A DNA stretch of 64,000 bases from positions 7,573-71,572 of the forward strand of contig SVNV01000007.1 in the NCBI GenBank assembly GCA_015066705.1, given 5' to 3'. Below, in pieces: positions 5,511 to 59,896 of this stretch. The position numbers and the translations under genes were made by a program. Origin of the DNA: Ruminococcus sp. (GTDB lineage Bacteria; Bacillota; Clostridia; Oscillospirales; Ruminococcaceae). Every line of letters starts with the position of its first letter. Within the stretch, counting starts at the first letter, position 1. The notes under the pieces were generated by a model that saw only the letters and a list, made by a program, of their open reading frames with translations, did no database searches and was not told the DNA's origin.

Positions 5511-6593
5511 TTATTCAGCCTTAACCTTTCCTGCTGAGATGTCAACAGTAACTATGTATCCTTCGCAGTTGTTTCCGCTGATTGTGTAGTGATATTCGCT
5601 TCCGTCTGCGTAAATCGGAATCTGTACGTTTGTGGTATCCTTGCTCTTGTCAGCAGGATAATAGTAAATTGCATATCTGTCGCCTGTACCTTCAGCGTTA
5701 ACATAAAGCGGAGTGTCAAGTGAATACTGAGCGATTGAAAGCATGTATTCTTCAAGACAGAGCTTACTGTTGTAGATAAGCTCAGCATGCGGAACACCAA
5801 CGTATCTGAAATGCCAGGTTTCCCCATCGATTCCTGTGATAGTAGCCTTGTCAGGGTCGTATCTCAGAATGAAACCGTACTTTGCACAGTTTTCAAGAAT
5901 CCACTTGTACTCTCCATCGCCTGAGAAGAAAGGGAAACCGTCCTTGGCAAGCTGGAAGTCAACAGCATATCCGCTGTGGTGTTCGCTGTGTCCCGGTTTT
6001 TCAACAAGAGTTGAATAAGCAAGTCCTGTTTTTTCAAGGTCCTTTTCGTAAAGTTCTTTCTGGTATTCTTCGGTTCTGTGACCGCTTACCAGCATAACGT
6101 CCTTGATTCCTTTTGCCTTGTAGAAATCGGCGAGCATAGCGTTTAAGTTTTCAAGAACAATCTTTTTGGCAGTAACTGAATCATCCTTTATTGGCATAAC
6201 AACTACATTGTTTTCGTTCTTTCTGTAATCAAAGCTTGAAACAAGGTCCTGTGGCTCGTCACCCTTGTATGCGTAATCACCGTTTATAAGGATAAGGTCG
6301 CCGTTGTGAAGGGCGGTTGTGTTATCAACATTAACATATTTGTAATCATTGTAAAGCTTTTCTGCGCTGGGCTGAATACTAGGTGTGTTATTGTTGTTTT
6401 GTGTATCAGACGGCTTCTTGTTGTCGGTTTGACTGCTTGGATTTTTTTCCTTTGGATTATCCTTTTTCTTGTCGTCATTTTTTGAGCAACCCTGACAAAT
6501 CAGCACTATAATAAGAATCATTGCACCAAGTGCAACAGCGATATTTTTATATTTAAGTCGTCTCCACAAAGGCTTTTTTGCCATTTTTCTCAC
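5511..6593 (-). CDS. VanY-type D-alanyl-D-alanine carboxypeptidase (peptidase M15B), membrane anchored
   Basis: N-terminal TM/signal anchor. Motifs SGHRTEEYQ, HSEHHSGYAVD and WHFRYVG are characteristic of the VanY/M15B Zn site. Confidence 0.8.
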   Translation of the reverse strand: MRKMAKKPLWRRLKYKNIAVALGAMILIIVLICQGCSKNDDKKKDNPKEKNPSSQTDNKKPSDTQNNNNTPSIQPSAEKLYNDYKYVNVDNTTALHNGDLILINGDYAYKGDEPQDLVSSFDYRKNENNVVVMPIKDDSVTAKKIVLENLNAMLADFYKAKGIKDVMLVSGHRTEEYQKELYEKDLEKTGLAYSTLVEKPGHSEHHSGYAVDFQLAKDGFPFFSGDGEYKWILENCAKYGFILRYDPDKATITGIDGETWHFRYVGVPHAELIYNSKLCLEEYMLSIAQYSLDTPLYVNAEGTGDRYAIYYYPADKSKDTTNVQIPIYADGSEYHYTISGNNCEGYIVTVDISAGKVKAE

Positions 6594-6762
6594 TGTCCTC
6601 TCTGTAAATTACCTGTTCTGTACATTATTCACTGTGTTTTCCACAGCAGATTTTCACATAGTAATTATACCACATCGCCACGCACATTTAAAGGGGATTT
6701 TCAAAGTTAACATTTAATTTACAAATTTCGACAAAAAGAGCGCCGATTTCTCAGCGCCTTGA

Positions 6763-7878
6763 TTACTTTTTGAAAGAGAATAAACCTTTTAATTTGTTCA
6801 TCGTTCTCTTGAAGTTTATAATCGGCTTTGTGAATAGTCTTAATATCAGACAAAACGGATACAAAACCGGAATCTTCTTTATAATCGGATAAGAAAAAGC
6901 AAGCGTCCTGTAGCTTGGGAAAAGCTTTGTAAGCAGGTATTTTGCTTTTCCTTTTTCTCTGATTTCGTTGTGTGTACTTGACTTAACTGTGCCAAAAGCT
7001 CCGCCCTTGTAGACGTATTCAGCCATTTCATCAAAGCTGTTATCCCATTCCTTGTCGCCAAACCACATCTGAGAAAGCAAAAGAATATCAAAGCAAAGCT
7101 TTTTGTACTGATTGTCCTTGAGAATATTACCGATTTTATCCAAATCAATTTTTTCATTGTGGTTTTTGTAGTAAAGCCAGATGTCCATAAAAGCTCTCAG
7201 ACCCACACCACCGTTTATGTAGTGCTTTGCAGCGTGTGTAAGAAGATGCAAAAAGAAGTATGTGCTGTCAAGCTCACATCTGAAGCCCTCTGTCTGCTTT
7301 GAAAAATCAAACGGGTTTTTAAGGTACTTTGCAAAATGCTTTCCGCCAAAAGTGTAATCCGAAAATAAAAATCTGTGTATTTCTACATTCATAATAGGCT
7401 TTTTGGTGTACTCATCGTGGTTTCCGGCATCAAAATGCTCGGCCTCGTAGCCATTCTGAATCATCAAGTCCCTGAGCTTGTGGTGACTGTTTTCTTCGGT
7501 GATGACGTCGATGTCGCACATGTAACGCATATCAGGAGAAGGGTAGAGCTTTTTCAGAATAATTCCCTTGAGAGGAATGTATTTGATTTTGTTTGAATTG
7601 AAGGTTTGCTCTAAAACACCGTATTCGTGAAACTGCTGTAAATCTCTTGCAATAGCCTTGTCACGGTCCTGACGCCAGATTTTCAGAATGTTATCTGACG
7701 GCTTGCTTCCAAGCTGTTCAATTCCGTAAAAAACCATTCCCGAAACGTGATGGAATTTCGATTTTTTGTATATCCCCTCAAAGGTCAGCCCCTCGGGTAA
7801 TTCCTCGGGCTTTTCACCTCTGAGCACCCTTTTCAGAAGGGAAGTTATATATTGGAATTCCGATAAATTGACATTCAT
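6763..7878 (-). CDS. Nucleotidyltransferase-family protein (NTP_transf_5 type, as found in RRE/kinase-associated peptide clusters)
   Basis: 371-aa ORF. Pol-beta-like motif IPLKGIILKKLYPSPDMRYMCDIDVI, then EIHRFLF and GGVGLRAFMDIW. Last gene of the pqqD-peptidase operon. Confidence 0.7.
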   Translation of the reverse strand: MNVNLSEFQYITSLLKRVLRGEKPEELPEGLTFEGIYKKSKFHHVSGMVFYGIEQLGSKPSDNILKIWRQDRDKAIARDLQQFHEYGVLEQTFNSNKIKYIPLKGIILKKLYPSPDMRYMCDIDVITEENSHHKLRDLMIQNGYEAEHFDAGNHDEYTKKPIMNVEIHRFLFSDYTFGGKHFAKYLKNPFDFSKQTEGFRCELDSTYFFLHLLTHAAKHYINGGVGLRAFMDIWLYYKNHNEKIDLDKIGNILKDNQYKKLCFDILLLSQMWFGDKEWDNSFDEMAEYVYKGGAFGTVKSSTHNEIREKGKAKYLLTKLFPSYRTLAFSYPIIKKIPVLYPFCLILRLFTKPIINFKRTMNKLKGLFSFKK

Positions 7879-7896
7879 AAAATGCTGTACTCCCGG

Positions 7897-8343
7897 TTAT
7901 TTTTTTAATATTCTTCTCAGCTTGAAAAATACTTTTCTGATGAAAAAGGATTTCCAAAAAAGCAAATAAATTCTGTAACCGAAATTTTTCCCGGAAATCT
8001 CCTTGTCGCCTCTGAAAACTCTTTCCACAACGCCGATAATCTGTTCAGACCTGATACCTTCCTCAAGCATAACCTGATTGTCACCGCAAAGGGTGTATAA
8101 GTCACCTTTTACCTTTACAATCCTGTGTAAAACATAATGCCCGTCATCTCTAAGATAAAAAACAATGTCGTTTTTCTTCAAATCTTTTGCAGGCTTGACA
8201 AGTCCGACCGAATCCTTACCCTCTCTCAATAGTGGAAGCATACTTGTTCCTCTCGGATAAAGCCTGAATTCTCCGCCATTTTCAAGAACAAACCTTATGG
8301 TTTCGTCGTATTCGCTGAGCTTGAATCTTTCTTTTTCAGGCAA
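7897..8343 (-). CDS. S24/S26-family Ser/Lys peptidase (signal-peptidase-I/LexA-like) with C-terminal hydrophobic tail
   Basis: GTSMLPLL (catalytic Ser box) and VLHRIVKVKGD (Lys box, like the SPase I KR..G.PGD motif). TTG start; its first codons overlap the PqqD stop (TTGCCTGA). Confidence 0.7.
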   Translation of the reverse strand: MPEKERFKLSEYDETIRFVLENGGEFRLYPRGTSMLPLLREGKDSVGLVKPAKDLKKNDIVFYLRDDGHYVLHRIVKVKGDLYTLCGDNQVMLEEGIRSEQIIGVVERVFRGDKEISGKNFGYRIYLLFWKSFFIRKVFFKLRRILKK

Positions 8344-8599
8344 GTAAATCTGCCCCTTTCAGCTTGTCAATAAATTCCAGAACGTCAGCTTTTGCAGTAG
8401 CCTCGTCAACATCATAGGTTCCGGATAATTTTGTAGCAAGCTCATCAGCTTCAGCACCTTCGCTTAAAGCCTCCCACAGGAATTTTCCTACAGAATTAAG
8501 TCTGATAATTCCGTTGAAATCACGGCTAGCGCTTCCAACCGCAACAACGATTGTCTGCTCGCCGACCTGTCTGAGCATAAAGCCTTCTTTAATTTTCAT
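8336..8599 (-). CDS. PqqD-family protein (RiPP recognition element / peptide chaperone)
   Basis: ORF 8336..8626. The ATG at 8599 is preferred because an AAGGTG RBS lies 7 nt upstream. About 87 aa, with the typical pattern MLRQVGEQTIVV...LNSVGKFLWEAL.....ELATKL...YDVD...A..DVLEFIDKL (winged-helix PqqD/RRE layout). Confidence 0.8.
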   Translation of the reverse strand: MKIKEGFMLRQVGEQTIVVAVGSASRDFNGIIRLNSVGKFLWEALSEGAEADELATKLSGTYDVDEATAKADVLEFIDKLKGADLLA

Positions 8600-8635
8600 A
8601 AAACCACACCTTTCGCAATAAATCAACTATATAAC

Positions 8636-8664
8636 ATTATAAAACTTTATTAAGCAAATGTCAA
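8636..8664 (-). promoter_or_regulatory. Consensus sigma-A promoter for the pqqD-peptidase-nucleotidyltransferase operon
   Basis: The minus strand reads TTGACA-17 nt-TATAAT (-35 at 8659-8664, -10 at 8636-8641). Confidence 0.7.
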
Positions 8665-8729: not shown

Positions 8730-8758
8730 TTGACATTCTGTCGTAATTGTTGTATAAT
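8730..8758 (+). promoter_or_regulatory. Consensus sigma-A promoter for the secreted-protein/precursor array
   Basis: TTGACA (8730-8735), 17 nt, TATAAT (8753-8758); 35 nt upstream of the RBS of ORF 8794. Confidence 0.7.
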
Positions 8759-8793: not shown

Positions 8794-9813
8794 ATGAAAC
8801 TCAAGAAGATTCTTTCTTCAGTTGTTGCACTCGCAATGGCTGTAACAACACTCACAGCATTTACAACTTCAGCAAATGCTAAGACAACATCAGCTAATAT
8901 TTTAGATGAAGCATTCACAATTGCAAGCTGGGATGTACCAGTGGTAGTTGCAAAGGCTGACATCACAGCAGAAGACATTGCTACTACAGGTGCTGACGCT
9001 GTAATCATCGCAGGCGATAAGGTTACAGGCGATTATTATGAATTTATGGTTCAGGCTAATGGTGTTCGTCTTTATCAGGAAAAGATTAACGGACCTTTTG
9101 AAGTAGAAGTTCCACTTTTTGGTAACTATGACCTTGAATTCACAGGTAACGCTGTAGAAATCACTTCAATCAAGTTTGTTGATTCAGATGCTAACGTATC
9201 ATTGACACGTGGTTCACAGGAAGCTGTAATCAGTGCTCCTGGTGCAAACGATACTGTACTTGCTACAGGTGTTGACCTCGGTTGGAGCGGTGCAGAAGGT
9301 ATTACTGTTTCAGGCACTCAGCTTTCAGGTTTGAGATTTGACGGTACAGAATCATTTGTATTCACATCAACAGGTACTGGTAACATTCAGATTCAGGATG
9401 GTAACTGGTCAGGCGTAATTATTGATGGCGGTATTTGGACAGCAGGTGACAAGCTTATTATTCCGATCACACAAACATATGTAGATGGTATTAATGCAAT
9501 CGGTACAGCTCCTGGCGTTGAGCTCCAGATTGTTGACTACGGTACAAAGGCTATCAGATACATCCTTAAGGTTGCTGAAGATGATGTAGATGAAATCGAA
9601 TCAGTATCACTTAAGTTCAGAAACGATTTTGATTATTCTGAAGCATTTGAAACATCAAAGTGCTACAGATCAATTAAGGCTAATGGACAGACAATTTCTG
9701 AAGATGGTTATGTATTTATCACATTTGTAGTAAATAATGTTCCTGGTAACTTCTCATTTGACGAAGCTATCTTCTCATTTGATGGTGAAAGAGCAGCAAC
9801 ACTTGTTGGTTAA
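8794..9813 (+). CDS. Secreted protein of unknown function (Sec signal peptide)
   Basis: Strong AGGAGG RBS. Signal peptide MKLKKILSSVVALAMAVTTLTAFTTSANA|K. Beta-rich, Gly/Thr/Val-rich mature part with no recognisable catalytic motif. Codon choice resembles the highly expressed tuf/fusA genes. Confidence 0.75.
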   Translation: MKLKKILSSVVALAMAVTTLTAFTTSANAKTTSANILDEAFTIASWDVPVVVAKADITAEDIATTGADAVIIAGDKVTGDYYEFMVQANGVRLYQEKINGPFEVEVPLFGNYDLEFTGNAVEITSIKFVDSDANVSLTRGSQEAVISAPGANDTVLATGVDLGWSGAEGITVSGTQLSGLRFDGTESFVFTSTGTGNIQIQDGNWSGVIIDGGIWTAGDKLIIPITQTYVDGINAIGTAPGVELQIVDYGTKAIRYILKVAEDDVDEIESVSLKFRNDFDYSEAFETSKCYRSIKANGQTISEDGYVFITFVVNNVPGNFSFDEAIFSFDGERAATLVG

Positions 9814-9862: not shown

Positions 9863-9991
9863 ATGAAGTTTGAATACATCAAGCCAGAACTCGAAATCGA
9901 GTTGTTCGAAGTTGAAGACGTTATTACTCTTTCAATCGTAAACGATGACGAAGAACAGATTCTTTTCGGAGATATCACTTGGGAAAACTAA
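9863..9991 (+). CDS. Unannotated small ORF A1 (42 aa), candidate RiPP precursor with lasso-like leader
   Basis: AAAGGAG RBS 8 nt upstream. Sequence MKFEYIKPELEIELFEVEDVITLSIVNDDEEQILFGDITWEN. The first 24 codons are paralogous to ORF A2, with 9 synonymous and 5 conservative differences. A hairpin terminator follows. Confidence 0.65.
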   Translation: MKFEYIKPELEIELFEVEDVITLSIVNDDEEQILFGDITWEN

Positions 9992-10002
9992 ATAAATGAA
10001 TC

Positions 10003-10032
10003 AAAGGCAGGCATTTTGCCTGCCTTTAATTT
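10003..10032 (+). terminator. Hairpin terminator/attenuator directly after small ORF A1
   Basis: ggcaggc-atttt-gcctgcc followed by TTTAATTT. The next gene starts 18 nt later, so the terminator is probably leaky. Confidence 0.65.
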
Positions 10033-10049: not shown

Positions 10050-10502
10050 ATGAAAAAAGTAATTTGTTTTACACTCATTCTAAGCGTTTGTATGAGTGTT
10101 ATGTGTGGGTGCGATACTTCTAAAGATGAATATAAAAGTATCACCTCAAAAACCACTACAACAGTAAACAGTAGCTCAACGGATATAAATAACGAGCCTA
10201 TTGCTACTACAACTGCAAGTGTAGAAAATTCAGTAAATACATCATCAACATTGACAACAACTGTTAAAACGGAAGCTACGATAGATGATGTTATTACTAC
10301 AACTACAGCTAAAAAGATAGAGAATAAGAATACTACCACAACGACTACTAAATTGACAACCACAAATAAGCCTACAACAACTACCAAAACTACCACTTCG
10401 ACAATTACTACTACTAAAAAACAGGATAGTGGATTGGTTATTGAAGATGAAGAGGATGAAAAAGATGTTGTAATTGATTTTGGTTCAATTATCTGGAAAT
10501 AA
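10050..10502 (+). CDS. Thr-rich lipoprotein L1 (unknown function)
   Basis: Lipobox-like signal peptide (LILSVCMSVMCGC). Long T/N/K low-complexity region. C-terminal acidic motif TTTKKQDSGLVIEDEEDEKDVVIDFGSIIWK shared with L2. Confidence 0.75.
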   Translation: MKKVICFTLILSVCMSVMCGCDTSKDEYKSITSKTTTTVNSSSTDINNEPIATTTASVENSVNTSSTLTTTVKTEATIDDVITTTTAKKIENKNTTTTTTKLTTTNKPTTTTKTTTSTITTTKKQDSGLVIEDEEDEKDVVIDFGSIIWK

Positions 10503-10558: not shown

Positions 10559-10696
10559 ATGAAGCTTGAATATTTTAAACCTGAGCTTGAAATCGACGTT
10601 TTTGAAATAGAAGACGTGATTACTCTCAGCAATGGCGATGCTTATGATGATGGTGATTTAAACGATAATAATAATTACGAAAATATTTTTGGTTAA
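10559..10696 (+). CDS. Unannotated small ORF A2 (45 aa), paralogue of A1, candidate RiPP precursor
   Basis: GGAGG RBS 8 nt upstream of the ATG at 10559 (internal Met of track ORF 10511..10696). Sequence MKLEYFKPELEIDVFEIEDVITLSNGDAYDDGDLNDNNNYENIFG. A hairpin terminator follows. Confidence 0.65.
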   Translation: MKLEYFKPELEIDVFEIEDVITLSNGDAYDDGDLNDNNNYENIFG

Positions 10697-10713: not shown

Positions 10714-10740
10714 AGGGCAGGTTTTTACCTGCCTTTTTTG
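10714..10740 (+). terminator. Rho-independent terminator after small ORF A2
   Basis: ggcaggt-tttt-acctgcc followed by TTTTTT. The stem sequence is related to the terminator after A1. Confidence 0.75.
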
Positions 10741-10769
10741 TTGACATAAATTGATAATAATGATATAAT
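10741..10769 (+). promoter_or_regulatory. Consensus sigma-A promoter for the L2-kinase operon
   Basis: TTGACA (10741-10746), 17 nt, TGaTATAAT (extended -10; hexamer 10764-10769). Confidence 0.7.
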
Positions 10770-10798: not shown

Positions 10799-11311
10799 AT
10801 GAAAAAAATACTTATGATTTTGTGCGTTGCTGCTATGTTTTGTATGACAGCTTGCGAAGGCGAAAAGCATACTAAGATTACATCAAAGTCAACAACTCCT
10901 GCTGAAACTACCACTAAAAAACAGGGCGGACTTGTAATTGAAGATGAATATAACGCTGACGAAGATGATGAAAATGCTATTGATTTCAATGATATTTTTA
11001 AAGATGTAAGTTATACCGATACTCCTGCAGCTACACAGCCTGTTGTCACAACAAAACCTGATGCTGACGAAAGCGATAAGCCGGATTCATCCAAAACTAC
11101 AACAACTGTAAAAAAAGATGATAAGGTAACTACAACAACTTCAAAAAAGGAAACAAATAAAACCACGACTACTACCACAAAACCATCAACAATCACCACA
11201 ACAACTACAAAGAAGCCGGTTGAATCCACAAATACAGGAAGCGGCCTTGACGTTGAAGATACAGCGCCGAACGACAACCTTGATTGGGGCCCGCTTGTTC
11301 CGATAAACTGA
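10799..11311 (+). CDS. Thr-rich lipoprotein L2 (paralogue of L1)
   Basis: Lipobox (AAMFCMTAC). The motif TTTKKQGGLVIEDEYNADEDDENAIDFNDIFK sits near the N-terminus, followed by a long T/K/P-rich region. The stop is 1 nt before the kinase ATG. Confidence 0.75.
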   Translation: MKKILMILCVAAMFCMTACEGEKHTKITSKSTTPAETTTKKQGGLVIEDEYNADEDDENAIDFNDIFKDVSYTDTPAATQPVVTTKPDADESDKPDSSKTTTTVKKDDKVTTTTSKKETNKTTTTTTKPSTITTTTTKKPVESTNTGSGLDVEDTAPNDNLDWGPLVPIN

Positions 11312-11312
11312 T

Positions 11313-12017
11313 ATGATTAGAAAATACAAAATTTGCGACTTGATAGTTGAATGTGATTTCCGCTTTGAAACTATGCTTTCACGAAGCGAGAAATTTGCAT
11401 TTGATACCGAAAAAGAGGCTGATATTACTATCGGCTATGATAAAAAACACCACGAATTTCTTTTGAAAAACGCAGAAAATTTCACAGAAAAGGATTGCGA
11501 AGTAATGTCAACGGGGAAGAAGTTTTATAATGAACTTCTGAACTTTGACGGCTTTATGCTTCATTCTTCGGCAGTTATGGTTGACGGAAAGGTTTTTCTT
11601 TTTTCTGCACCAAGCGGAACGGGGAAGTCTACCCATACAAGACAATGGCGTAAGCTTTTCGGCGAAAGAGCAGTAATCATTAACGATGATAAACCTGCAA
11701 TAAGAATTGTTGACGGTAAAATCTATGCCTATGGAACCCCTTGGAGCGGAAGCTCTGAGCTCAATAGTACCGATTTCGGAATTCTTCAGGGGATATGTGT
11801 TCTTTCCCGTAGTGAGGAAAATTATATCCGACCTCTAGACCAGAGTAAAGCGATTTTCTCCGTTTTAAATCAGACTATAAGACCTGCCGACGAAAAGAAG
11901 ATGGATAAACTTCTTGCAGTGCTTGATAAGGTAGTAAGCGGAGTGAAAATCTGGCAGATGGGCTGTAATATTTCCACTGACGCAGCACAACTTGCATATG
12001 ACGCTATGAGTAAATAA
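11313..12017 (+). CDS. HPr-kinase-like P-loop kinase (lasso-peptide kinase-like)
   Basis: LHSSAVMVDGKVFLFSAPSGTGKSTHTRQW...AVIINDD matches the HprK C-terminal domain layout (H-G/S..V...G..vL..G.SG.GKS...DD). Translationally coupled to L2. Confidence 0.75.
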   Translation: MIRKYKICDLIVECDFRFETMLSRSEKFAFDTEKEADITIGYDKKHHEFLLKNAENFTEKDCEVMSTGKKFYNELLNFDGFMLHSSAVMVDGKVFLFSAPSGTGKSTHTRQWRKLFGERAVIINDDKPAIRIVDGKIYAYGTPWSGSSELNSTDFGILQGICVLSRSEENYIRPLDQSKAIFSVLNQTIRPADEKKMDKLLAVLDKVVSGVKIWQMGCNISTDAAQLAYDAMSK

Positions 12018-21644: not shown

Positions 21645-21686
21645 AAATGAAGATATGAAATATATAAACCGAAAGGAATGTTGACT

Positions 21687-23126
21687 ATGGAATTCAAAGC
21701 ATATTCAGTTCATATGGGTAAGGCAAAATGTGCTGTTGACCTTGGCGACGGCTCTGAAAGAGGCGAGTATGTAAATCAGGATTATATTCTCCATAAAATG
21801 GGAAGACCTCACAGAGGAATTTCGCTTATGTATTGCTACTATCCCCTTGATAAGGAATGGCCGGGAAGAATTTCCGAGGTTATGAAGGATTCAAATGTAA
21901 CATATCAGTGGGGCTATGCATACGACGACTATTTTACATATAAGGGCGGACTTGGCGGAACAACAGATGACGAACCTTTTACATATATGAGAGATGTACG
22001 CCGTCACGGACAGGACGTAATCCTTACACTTACCTGTGACCCTAATGTTTCTGATGAACATCTTATTGCTATCGCAAAGGACCTCAGACCTTTCGGTAGA
22101 ATTATGCTTAGAATCAACCACGAAGCAACAGGAACATGGTTTTCATTCAATAAGAGAGCAACCTATCAGGAAGTAGCTGATTTTTATTGCAGATTCCATA
22201 GAATAATCAAGGAATACGCACCTAACGTAACTACAATTCTCTGTATCGGCGGTATCGAAGACCCGAACGCAACAGAAATTGTTATGGAAAAGGAATTTTC
22301 TCAGGCTGTCAAGGAAACAGATATCTGGTCTGTTGATAAGTATATGGCACTTCACTGGGGCTGGCCTTTTGACGTTGCACTTAAAACAAGCGAAAGAAAG
22401 ACTTATTACAGAAGAACCTTTGAAGAAATCTATGACCTTACAAAGAAGTCATATAAGCGTTTTCTTGAAATCAACGGCGGTGTAGCAAAGCCAATGGTAA
22501 TGAGTGAATTCAACGCTGACGGCGATGTAACAGGACCTTACGACCAGTGCGAAATGGTTAAGGGCTTCTGTGATATGTTAAAGGCTGACCCTGAACACTG
22601 GTTTGACGCATTCACTTTCTATCAGTTCCGTGACAGAGGTAGACTGGGACTTGAAATTGAAGACCCAAACTACGCTGACTGTGGTGTTGAACAGCCTGTT
22701 ATGAAAACCTATAAGGAAATTATCCACGATGATTTCTTCAAGCCTGAAATGACAAAGGGCGAGGAAGTTTCTTTTCCTGTGACTCTCAGATGGGGTGGCT
22801 CGGAAGATGCAGAGGGAATTGAAATCCCACTTCACTTTGAAAAAAATCCTCACTTCTGCGAGGTTACTTTTGACGATGATTCAAATGTTATGATGGAAAT
22901 CAACGGAAAGTGGTTCTATAAGTCACCAAAGGCAAAAACAATAGACCTTATGAGCGCTTTCTATGAAAAACCACTTGACGGCGAGACAGACCTTACACTT
23001 CGTCTTTTTGCTCCACCGGCAAGCGGAGAAAATGATATTTCAACAGAGGACGGACTCTATAACTGCTACCAGACAATCGAAAAACTGCCTGATATCAGAA
23101 TTGAGTTTGAGCCTGTAATGGACTGA
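21687..23126 (+). CDS. Putative clan GH-A (TIM-barrel) glycoside hydrolase, cytoplasmic; beta-mannanase-like by context
   Basis: Track ORF 21678..23126; the ATG at 21687 has better RBS spacing. RINHEATGTW (acid/base NE-type motif) and VMSEFNADGD (candidate nucleophile). No signal peptide. manA lies downstream. Confidence 0.45.
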   Translation: MEFKAYSVHMGKAKCAVDLGDGSERGEYVNQDYILHKMGRPHRGISLMYCYYPLDKEWPGRISEVMKDSNVTYQWGYAYDDYFTYKGGLGGTTDDEPFTYMRDVRRHGQDVILTLTCDPNVSDEHLIAIAKDLRPFGRIMLRINHEATGTWFSFNKRATYQEVADFYCRFHRIIKEYAPNVTTILCIGGIEDPNATEIVMEKEFSQAVKETDIWSVDKYMALHWGWPFDVALKTSERKTYYRRTFEEIYDLTKKSYKRFLEINGGVAKPMVMSEFNADGDVTGPYDQCEMVKGFCDMLKADPEHWFDAFTFYQFRDRGRLGLEIEDPNYADCGVEQPVMKTYKEIIHDDFFKPEMTKGEEVSFPVTLRWGGSEDAEGIEIPLHFEKNPHFCEVTFDDDSNVMMEINGKWFYKSPKAKTIDLMSAFYEKPLDGETDLTLRLFAPPASGENDISTEDGLYNCYQTIEKLPDIRIEFEPVMD

Positions 23127-58417: not shown

Positions 58418-59896
58418 ATGACTTTGATTTTTAACGGACAAGATTTCAAGTATGAAATAGAATCAGTAGTAAAGCTGTTTTTGCCTGTTGTGCATTTTGA
58501 TTTTCTGTATGAAAATTCTGCTGATAGTGTTATTGGTGATTATTGCCTCTGTGAAAGAGAAATTTCTGATAATACCGCTAAGCTTCATTCTGAATGTAGA
58601 CTTAACGGCGAAACAGCAAGCTTTTATAATGAAATTTCTGTTGATACTTTGAATTTTGACGGCGAGTGTGAAATTTCACTTTGCTCAATGCTCTTCAAGT
58701 GCCTTGAAAAGCTGACGGGTAAAAAAGTCGGCTGGGGAACACTTACAGGAGTACGTCCTGTGAAACGTGTAAATAAAATGATTTCTCAGGGTATGACTAA
58801 AAACCAAATCAAAGACGAGCTTAAAAACCGCTTTCTGCTTTCCGATGAGAAGTGTGAAATCGCATATAAAACTGCAAAAACCCAGCAGAATATCGTAAAT
58901 AGAATTGATGATAAGGCATTTGCACTTTATGTTTCAATTCCTTTTTGTCCATCAAGATGTTCGTATTGTTCTTTTGTTTCGCAGGAAGTAGAAAAATCTC
59001 TTGACCTTATACCAAAGTATGTTTATTGCCTTTGCCGTGAAATCGAAAAAACAGGCGAAATTGCCACTTCTCTCGGACTTAAACTGCAGTCTGTGTATTT
59101 CGGTGGCGGAACTCCTACCTCGCTTGAAGCTCCATATTTAAAGACTATTATGGAAGCAGTAAAGAATTCCTTTGATATGTCAGGCGTGCTCGAATATACA
59201 GTTGAGGCAGGCCGTGCTGATACAATTACAGAGGACAAGCTTCTCACAATTAAGGAAATGGGTGCTGACAGAGTTTCAATTAACCCACAGACGCTTAATA
59301 ACGACGTTTTAAAAGAAATCGGCAGAAAGCACACTGTTGAGGACTTTTTTGATAAGTATAACCTTGCAAGAAAAATCGGATTTAAAACTATAAATACCGA
59401 CCTTATAGCAGGACTTCCTACCGATACGACAGATAGCTTTAAAAATACAATAGACGGGATAGTTTCACTAAGCCCTGAAAATGTAACGGTGCATACGCTT
59501 TCTGTTAAGAGGACTTCAAATATAAACGTAAACGGTGAATATCAGGTGCTTGATAACCCTGCCTGCGAAATGGTAGACTACGCTACAAAAATACTTTCTG
59601 AAAGTGGTTATAATCCATATTATCTTTATAAGCAGAAGAATATGCTTGATAATCTTGAAAATATCGGCTGGTCCATACCAGGGCACGAAAGCCTGTATAA
59701 TGTTTATATTATGGAGGAAATCCAGACGATTTTAGCTGTGGGGGCAGGGGCTTCAACAAAGCTTGTTGATAATAAAAATTCACGCCTTGAAAGAATTTTT
59801 AATTATAAGCTCCCACTTGAATATATCAAGAATTTTGACTTGATGCTCGAAAAGAAAGACGATATAGAAAGGTTTTATAATTTTGAAAAAGAATGA
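58418..59896 (+). CDS. HemN/HemZ-like oxygen-independent coproporphyrinogen-III-oxidase-family radical SAM protein
   Basis: Radical SAM cluster motif CPSRCSYCSF, GGGTP, and an N-terminal extension typical of HemZ-like proteins. Confidence 0.8.
   Translation: MTLIFNGQDFKYEIESVVKLFLPVVHFDFLYENSADSVIGDYCLCEREISDNTAKLHSECRLNGETASFYNEISVDTLNFDGECEISLCSMLFKCLEKLTGKKVGWGTLTGVRPVKRVNKMISQGMTKNQIKDELKNRFLLSDEKCEIAYKTAKTQQNIVNRIDDKAFALYVSIPFCPSRCSYCSFVSQEVEKSLDLIPKYVYCLCREIEKTGEIATSLGLKLQSVYFGGGTPTSLEAPYLKTIMEAVKNSFDMSGVLEYTVEAGRADTITEDKLLTIKEMGADRVSINPQTLNNDVLKEIGRKHTVEDFFDKYNLARKIGFKTINTDLIAGLPTDTTDSFKNTIDGIVSLSPENVTVHTLSVKRTSNINVNGEYQVLDNPACEMVDYATKILSESGYNPYYLYKQKNMLDNLENIGWSIPGHESLYNVYIMEEIQTILAVGAGASTKLVDNKNSRLERIFNYKLPLEYIKNFDLMLEKKDDIERFYNFEKE

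Follow-up and report, generated by a model that had tools for sequence, protein, structure and literature searches.

The stretch of Ruminococcus DNA analyzed here, a window of 64 kb, carries on its minus strand an operon in which a gene for a PqqD-family RiPP recognition element (RRE) is followed by a small peptidase gene and then by a gene for a PF14907 nucleotidyltransferase (Table 1). The TTG start of the peptidase gene (8343-8341) is located within the last codons of pqqD, whose TGA stop occupies positions 8338-8336, and the two genes overlap by 8 nt (TTGCCTGA). At this point the minus strand reads ...GAAAGGGGCAGATTTAC-TTG-CCT-GAA..., with a Shine-Dalgarno-like AAAGGGG 10-16 nt 5' of the TTG. 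The peptidase and PF14907 genes are separated by 18 nt. An earlier reading of the locus made without database searches (here, the sequence-only reading) had described a 148-residue ORF whose TTG start overlaps the PqqD stop, and both features were confirmed; since the gene, the overlap and the PqqD and PF14907 neighbors were all seen, its physical description is correct. Just past the operon terminator lies a gene for a VanY-type D-Ala-D-Ala carboxypeptidase with an N-terminal membrane anchor (5511-6593, minus strand), which is probably unrelated to the cassette.

On the opposite strand are genes for a secreted protein, two precursor peptides (A1 and A2), two Thr-rich lipoproteins and an HprK-like P-loop protein. 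Three perfect (12/12) matches to TTGACA-17-TATAAT occur within about 2 kb, belonging to the two divergent operons and to the lipoprotein-HprK pair.

Table 1. Features of the peptidase locus, with candidate functional residues of the peptidase
Feature	Position	Strand	Remarks
Terminator-like hairpin	6739..6758	-	closes pqqD-peptidase-NTP5 operon
PF14907 (NTP_transf_5) nucleotidyltransferase	6763..7878	-	third operon gene; Pfam 157.6 bits
S26B-like (ER/SipW-type) serine peptidase gene	7897..8343	-	148 aa, soluble
Candidate third member E94	codon 8064-8062	-	pairs with SEC11A Asp122
Structural-pair residue D88	codon 8082-8080	-	pairs with SEC11A Asp116
Structural-pair residue R74			pairs with SEC11A Arg97
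Candidate base H73	codon 8127-8125	-	pairs with SEC11A His96
Candidate nucleophile S34	codon 8244-8242	-	invariant; pairs with SEC11A Ser56
PqqD-family RiPP recognition element	8336..8626	-	lasso-B1-like, 96 aa; Pfam PqqD
Promoter-like site, pqqD operon	8636..8664	-	perfect TTGACA-17-TATAAT
Promoter-like site, divergent peptide operon	8730..8758	+	perfect TTGACA-17-TATAAT
Secreted protein	8794..9813	+	first gene of peptide operon; 339 aa, signal peptide, no Pfam family
Precursor A1	9863..9991	+	42 aa (MKFEYIKPELEIELFEVEDVITLS...WEN), YxxPxL leader; SD AAAGGAG
Terminator-like hairpin	10003..10027	+	3' of A1
Thr-rich lipoprotein 1	10050..10502	+	acidic tail, end ...VIDFGSIIWK
Precursor A2	10559..10696	+	45 aa (MKLEYFKPELEIDVFEIEDVITLS...IFG); SD GGAGG
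Terminator-like hairpin	10714..10735	+	3' of A2
Promoter-like site, lipoprotein 2 and HprK-like gene	10741..10769	+	perfect
Thr-rich lipoprotein 2	10799..11311	+	end ...NLDWGPLVPIN; abuts HprK-like gene
HprK-related/ScmC-like P-loop protein (SGTGKST)	11313..12017	+	presumed peptide kinase; NCBIfam, sub-threshold

A scan of one genome per GTDB species yielded 162 confirmed relatives of the peptidase. The best 80 of these 162, which came from Oscillospiraceae, Ruminococcus, Ruminiclostridium, Lachnospiraceae and similar gut and rumen MAGs, were examined for gene context, and their start codons were placed by alignment before the overlap with PqqD was measured. A survey of this pairing had been proposed along with the sequence-only reading. 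Among these best 80 of 162 relatives, PqqD was encoded directly upstream of the peptidase in 72 of the 79 loci with upstream sequence; a PqqD gene was present in 74 loci, the 72 included. The exact 8-nt TTG overlap, with the motif CTTGnnTRA and preceded by GGAGG-like sequences, was found in 58 of the 74. The proposed translational coupling of an S24/S26-fold peptidase to a lasso-B1-like RRE is therefore a recurrent arrangement. The PqqD protein of the window itself scored 62 bits against the Pfam family (cut-off 23.4), its top NCBIfam matches were lasso PqqD models, both sub-threshold (37.3 versus 70 and 33.2 versus 80 bits), and its best PDB sequence match was the lasso RRE TbiB1 (E=1.3e-4).

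In about six (six to seven) of the 80 loci PqqD was not detected (L022, L030, L044, L054, L080, L081). Two of them, L030 and L054, retain YxxP peptides, so the RRE may not be obligatory. Candidates for a PqqD-peptidase fusion were rejected: the long ORFs of L080 and L081 have low-complexity N-terminal extensions and no PqqD, and P0184 contains no PqqD domain. The sole informative fusion joined the peptidase to PF14907 (P0147, discussed below). A distant family member, P0176 (L087 3566-4315), has a 100-aa C-terminal extension and is situated between ParB and TnpV/relaxase genes. This setting is a conjugative or mobilisable element (ParA/ParB/relaxase) with RiPP genes absent nearby, and it indicates that the fold family is not restricted to the PqqD cassette.

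Several other genes recur around the peptidase. An ABC exporter of 554 aa is encoded directly 3' of the peptidase gene, between it and the PF14907 gene, in about 50 of the 80 loci; it consists of ABC_membrane and ABC_tran domains only and has no C39 protease domain. The cassette of the window does not include this exporter (window 6763-8626 versus L001 7745-11209). Of the 60 loci whose downstream sequence was long enough, 41 had a PF14907 gene. The HprK-like P-loop protein, with an invariant Walker A motif, was found in 34 of the 38 loci with ample flanks, and a PDB profile search with it gave P-loop-level matches only. No other protease family was detected by Pfam analysis of representatives of most recurrent neighbors, and the peptidase is the only protease in the conserved cassette with YxxPxΦ-leader peptides. 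The small ORFs of related loci, 40-odd in number, have the leader consensus Y-x-K-P-E-I-E-I-T-x-F-x-T-E-D-I-I-T-[A/S/L]-S. The cores that follow this shared leader are variable, acidic and rich in Ser, Thr, Gly and Asn, often ending in Φ-D-Φ...W; conservation is concentrated in the leader and junction and not in the C-terminus.

We then consider the peptidase itself. Its sole Pfam match was Peptidase_S24 (PF00717), at 22.9 bits just under the gathering score of 23.3, and 32 of 40 relatives matched this family at E<0.01. Archaeal signal peptidase I (TIGR02228) headed the NCBIfam models with 26.1 bits, under its cut-off of 51.85, and the SipW model NF046067 gave 20 bits (cut-off 190). PDB sequence searches with the peptidase and with its family profile returned nothing meaningful, the PHROG library gave a weak match to CI-like repressors (E=0.0076), and the PADLOC defense-system library gave no matches. 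An AF2 model calculated from an alignment of 40 relatives had a mean pLDDT of 85.8 and a pTM of 0.80, with the lowest confidence (pLDDT 63) in residues 31-40, the block containing S34. The best PDB matches of this model in Foldseek were LexA, S. aureus SpsB, S. pyogenes SipA, the lambda cI C-terminal domain and UmuD', with probabilities of 0.82-1.0 for LexA, SpsB, SipA and E. coli SPase. The predicted structure of the peptidase alone thus supports an S24/S26 (clan SF) fold, as had been suggested. Relatives formed 1067 clusters at 90% identity, the few named ones being 'S24/S26 family peptidase' (NCBI), and a library at 50% identity contained 10,080 family representatives at E<=1e-3. Database annotation goes no further than this family name.

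The Ser box noted previously (GTSMLP) is present, with S34 found in 262 of 262 aligned family members and G32, S34, M35 and P37 invariant in the family alignment. The Lys box was not borne out: K77 occurs in 113 of 264 (43%) and K79 in 73 of 264 (28%) aligned members, and it is the preceding His-Arg that is conserved instead (H73 in 263/264, R74 in 264/264), together with G87-D88 (264/264) and E94 (261/264). An S24-type Ser-Lys dyad was therefore rejected, with His at the base position in 263 of 264 members and nearby lysines only 28–43% conserved. When the family profile was aligned by hhalign with human SEC11A (a sequence identical to PDB 7p2p chain A), S34 paired with S56, H73 with H96, R74 with R97, D88 with D116 and E94 with D122, and these five residues are all 99-100% conserved among the 264 members. 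In SEC11A, Ser56, His96 and Asp122 form the catalytic triad, and Asp116 is joined to Arg97 by a structural salt bridge, a feature shared with bacterial enzymes (bioRxiv 10.1101/2020.11.11.378711). The same comparison with E. coli LexA, for which an approximate sequence was used, aligned the serine box alone. Because the invariant H73, R74, D88 and E94 align with the SEC11A active site, the peptidase is, judged from its sequence, a putative Ser-His-acid enzyme of the ER/archaeal/SipW type (S26B-like), with S34/H73/E94 as candidate triad and R74-D88 as the structural pair. This arrangement replaces the Ser-Lys chemistry of the sequence-only reading.

ER-type signal peptidases I (MEROPS S26B: SEC11A/C, yeast Sec11, archaeal SPase I, Bacillus SipW) thus share the SPase I fold with the peptidase, and in the SEC11A comparison the box B Ser, the box D His-Arg, the box E Gly-Asp-Asn and the downstream acid all align. 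The peptide junction T-x-S carries small residues, as signal-peptidase -3/-1 sites do. However, the peptidase differs from these enzymes in that it has no membrane anchor, is about 148 aa long, begins with a conserved helix and ends in a basic amphipathic tail; it has Glu where the S26B triad has Asp, scores far under the S26B family cut-offs, and has a cytoplasmic RRE as its genomic partner. Peptidase S24 proteins (C-terminal domains of LexA, UmuD and lambda cI) are its best structural matches, but the peptidase has His instead of the catalytic Lys and neither a DNA-binding nor a dimerisation context. A self-cleavage site (Ala-Gly or Cys-Gly) was absent from the family alignment, in which nothing but a conserved helix of 21 residues lies ahead of the catalytic domain.

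Canonical ER/archaeal/SipW-type enzymes are tethered to the membrane and have their active site on its non-cytoplasmic side. Kyte-Doolittle 19-residue means revealed no transmembrane segment in 40 members of the family, the maximum being 0.78 in the peptidase and 0.4-1.3 in 40 relatives. The C-terminal tail had been called hydrophobic; it does not span a membrane and consists of two basic amphipathic helices (YRIYLLFWKSFFIRKVFFKLRRILKK). The N-terminus forms a conserved hydrophilic helix (residues 9-21) that is family-specific. P0147 (L086 846-2474, 542 aa), whose gene directly follows a PqqD gene, is a natural fusion of the S26-like domain and a PF14907 nucleotidyltransferase, and since the latter uses NTP, it argues for a cytoplasmic location. 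We infer that the peptidase is soluble or peripherally membrane-associated and resides in the cytoplasm.

The sequence-only reading had placed the peptidase in a lasso peptide cluster, in the slot of the B2 cysteine protease. This frame had to be abandoned. No Asn-synthase match (lasso cyclase) was found among the ORFs of at least 480 aa in the 64-kb window, whose large ORFs are housekeeping genes, and a search for the cyclase PP-loop motif in ORFs of at least 350 aa within ±8 kb at 81 loci returned NadE and ThiI only. Similarly, the genes scanned around the window cluster included no B2 transglutaminase-fold protease, and representatives from 18 recurrent neighbor clusters of the 81 loci had no transglutaminase-core match. 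As the cyclase is absent everywhere we looked (the window and 81 loci), this is not a lasso cluster.

The cassette nevertheless resembles a particular group of lasso clusters, those of phosphorylated lasso peptides (paeninodin pade, pseudomycoidin psm and Bsf), which likewise have a PqqD-type RRE followed by a protease gene, a YxxPxL-type leader, an HprK-type kinase, a PF14907 'N' protein and an ABC exporter. The bsf cluster contains A, C, B1, B2, K (HprK-type), N (NTP transferase) and D (PMC10368454), and the psm cluster has the same content. YxxPxL is the motif read by lasso B1 RREs, at leader positions -17 to -12, and the Bsf RRE serves both kinase and protease and stimulates phosphorylation of core residue Ser3 by the kinase (PMC10368454). 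The cassette described here comprises A, B1, K, N and usually D, but is without C, and an S26-like gene takes the place of B2. Lasso B2 has a Cys-His-Asp transglutaminase fold, whereas the protease here is an unrelated clan SF Ser-His enzyme. Without the asparagine-synthetase-like cyclase of the phosphorylated-lasso clusters, no lasso can form. A1, A2 and about 40 relatives carry YxxP[E]Φ, which is separated from the conserved Thr by 2 residues more than in lasso leaders; the spacing from the Tyr to T-x-S is 2-3 residues longer than the lasso register. The absence of both cyclase and B2 points to a relative of the phosphorylated-lasso clusters that has no cyclase and whose B2 position is filled by an S26-type protease.

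In such a cluster the gene context makes it fairly probable that the peptidase is an RRE-coupled cytoplasmic leader peptidase. The RRE would act as a chaperone that binds the Y-x-x-P-x-Φ motif of the conserved A1 and A2 leaders and brings the conserved (I/V)-I-T-x-S junction within reach of the protease, and the latter would take off the leader inside the cytoplasm. The HprK-like P-loop protein and the PF14907 nucleotidyltransferase might then tailor the acidic, Trp-containing core, in analogy to phosphorylated lasso peptides, and the product would be exported by the protease-less ABC transporter encoded directly downstream in most relatives. Three cleavage registers can be envisaged: the lasso register (Y at -17), which would put I/V at -2 and make the conserved Ser core position 3; a cut before the conserved Ser, with Thr at -2; or a signal-peptidase-like cut after T-x-S, in which case small residues would occupy -3 and -1. 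Counted against a leader peptidase are the pLDDT of 63 in the S34 block, the sub-threshold model scores, the loci without PqqD, the window without an ABC exporter and the non-RiPP context of P0176.

Alternatively, the peptidase might be an active cytoplasmic protease of the cassette that is not guided by the RRE. It might trim the C-terminus of the core, process or activate the nucleotidyltransferase or another protein, or cut the peptides without PqqD. The PqqD-less loci, some of which keep their peptides, the fusion or frequent gene overlap with PF14907 even where PqqD is missing (L044), and the occurrence of P0176 in a ParA/ParB/relaxase element with no RiPP context make such a function plausible. 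However, PqqD is the most constant neighbor and shares the conserved 8-nt overlap, whereas NTP5 is present in just 41 of the 60 informative loci, and in the peptides it is the leader and junction that are conserved rather than the C-terminus. We therefore regard this explanation as rather unlikely.

It is less probable still, and in our view improbable, that the peptidase works as a SipW-like type I signal peptidase dedicated to the secreted protein (8794..9813) or to other exported proteins of the locus, acting on the outer side of the membrane. SipW of B. subtilis is an operon-dedicated signal peptidase, and archaeal signal peptidase I and SipW are the nearest sequence models of the peptidase, whose Ser-His-acid residues are the same as those of SEC11A; in addition, a secreted protein and two lipoproteins adjoin and recur in related loci. 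However, the scores fall far short of the cut-offs of the SipW and archaeal models, the gene with which the peptidase gene almost always overlaps encodes a cytoplasmic peptide chaperone, and it is signal peptidase II that would cleave the lipoproteins. The missing N-terminal anchor, with no transmembrane segment in 40 members, and the fusion of P0147 to a cytoplasmic-type nucleotidyltransferase also count against an ordinary signal peptidase for the neighboring secreted proteins. Finally, a non-catalytic or self-cleaving member of the fold, either a LexA/UmuD-like autoproteolytic switch or a SipA-like inactive chaperone, is suggested by the top structural matches (LexA, UmuD', lambda cI, SipA) and the weak CI-like PHROG match but is very improbable, because the catalytic positions are all invariant, which is not known to be the case in SipA-type inactive homologues, and the conserved Ala-Gly self-cleavage region is absent from the alignment, as is a DNA-binding domain, with the Lys of the S24 dyad replaced by His.

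The role favored here, that of an RRE-coupled leader peptidase, is the same as that of other RiPP leader peptidases, such as the C39 domains of PCAT exporters, LanP subtilisins, M16 enzymes of the PqqF/G type and TldD/E, which remove the N-terminal leader before or during export. To our knowledge, none of them has an S24/S26 fold. In the full-text literature searched, which covered subscription papers in part, we found no published description of a PqqD-S24/S26 pairing or of a PqqD/HprK/PF14907 cassette, and a search for HprK-related system names gave nothing relevant. Leader processing in this family, which may be undescribed and very widespread, may be of the RRE-dependent RiPP type but carried out by a different protease fold. 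If the peptidase is a leader peptidase, it would represent a new enzyme fold for RiPP leader removal and would imply that RREs can exchange their protease partner for an unrelated one. It would, moreover, have a signal-peptidase-type active site that works inside the cytoplasm, a rare situation, on a substrate delivered by a chaperone. More tentatively, the cassette could define an undescribed RiPP-like class common in gut and rumen Clostridia, in which linear, acidic, Trp-bearing peptides have a lasso-type leader that is read by a B1-like RRE, are set free by a cytoplasmic, RRE-coupled protease of the S26 type (Ser-His-Glu), which would be the first known, and are modified by an HprK-like kinase together with a PF14907 transferase, with acidic-Trp lipoproteins and the secreted protein as extracellular partners. 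A pqqD gene overlapped by a TTG-started S26-like gene provides a handle for genome mining and points to an extensive, uncharacterised family of peptides in Oscillospiraceae, Ruminococcus and Lachnospiraceae of the gut and rumen, the scale of which is given by 162 confirmed GTDB species-genome matches, more than 1000 clusters at 90% identity and, for the wider family, approximately 10,000 clusters at 50%.

The secreted protein, which is encoded divergently from pqqD, has counterparts of 500-713 aa in at least 33 related loci (for example, L001 5432-7489 and L007 12179-14320), with no or almost no Pfam matches; the version in L001 has an internal duplication. The protein of the window (8794-9813) may be an extracellular partner of the peptides. 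Thr/Ser-rich lipoproteins were also observed at L001 3725-4225, L007 11725-11940, L012 5107-5763, L017 6187-6705 and L029 7853-8470. They are often translationally coupled to the HprK-like gene and have acidic Trp ends (...D-x-x-W-G-P-L... or ...VIDFGSIIWK), which resemble the C-termini of precursor cores (...IDLSKGEWK, ...ILFGDITWEN). Possible roles for these lipoproteins are those of tethered mimics, of immunity or decoy proteins, or of additional substrates. Elsewhere in the window, an ORF of 482 aa (21678-23126, plus strand) has no Pfam family, and a radical SAM protein of 492 aa (58418-59896, plus strand) adjoins a TRAM/tRNA-U5 methyltransferase.
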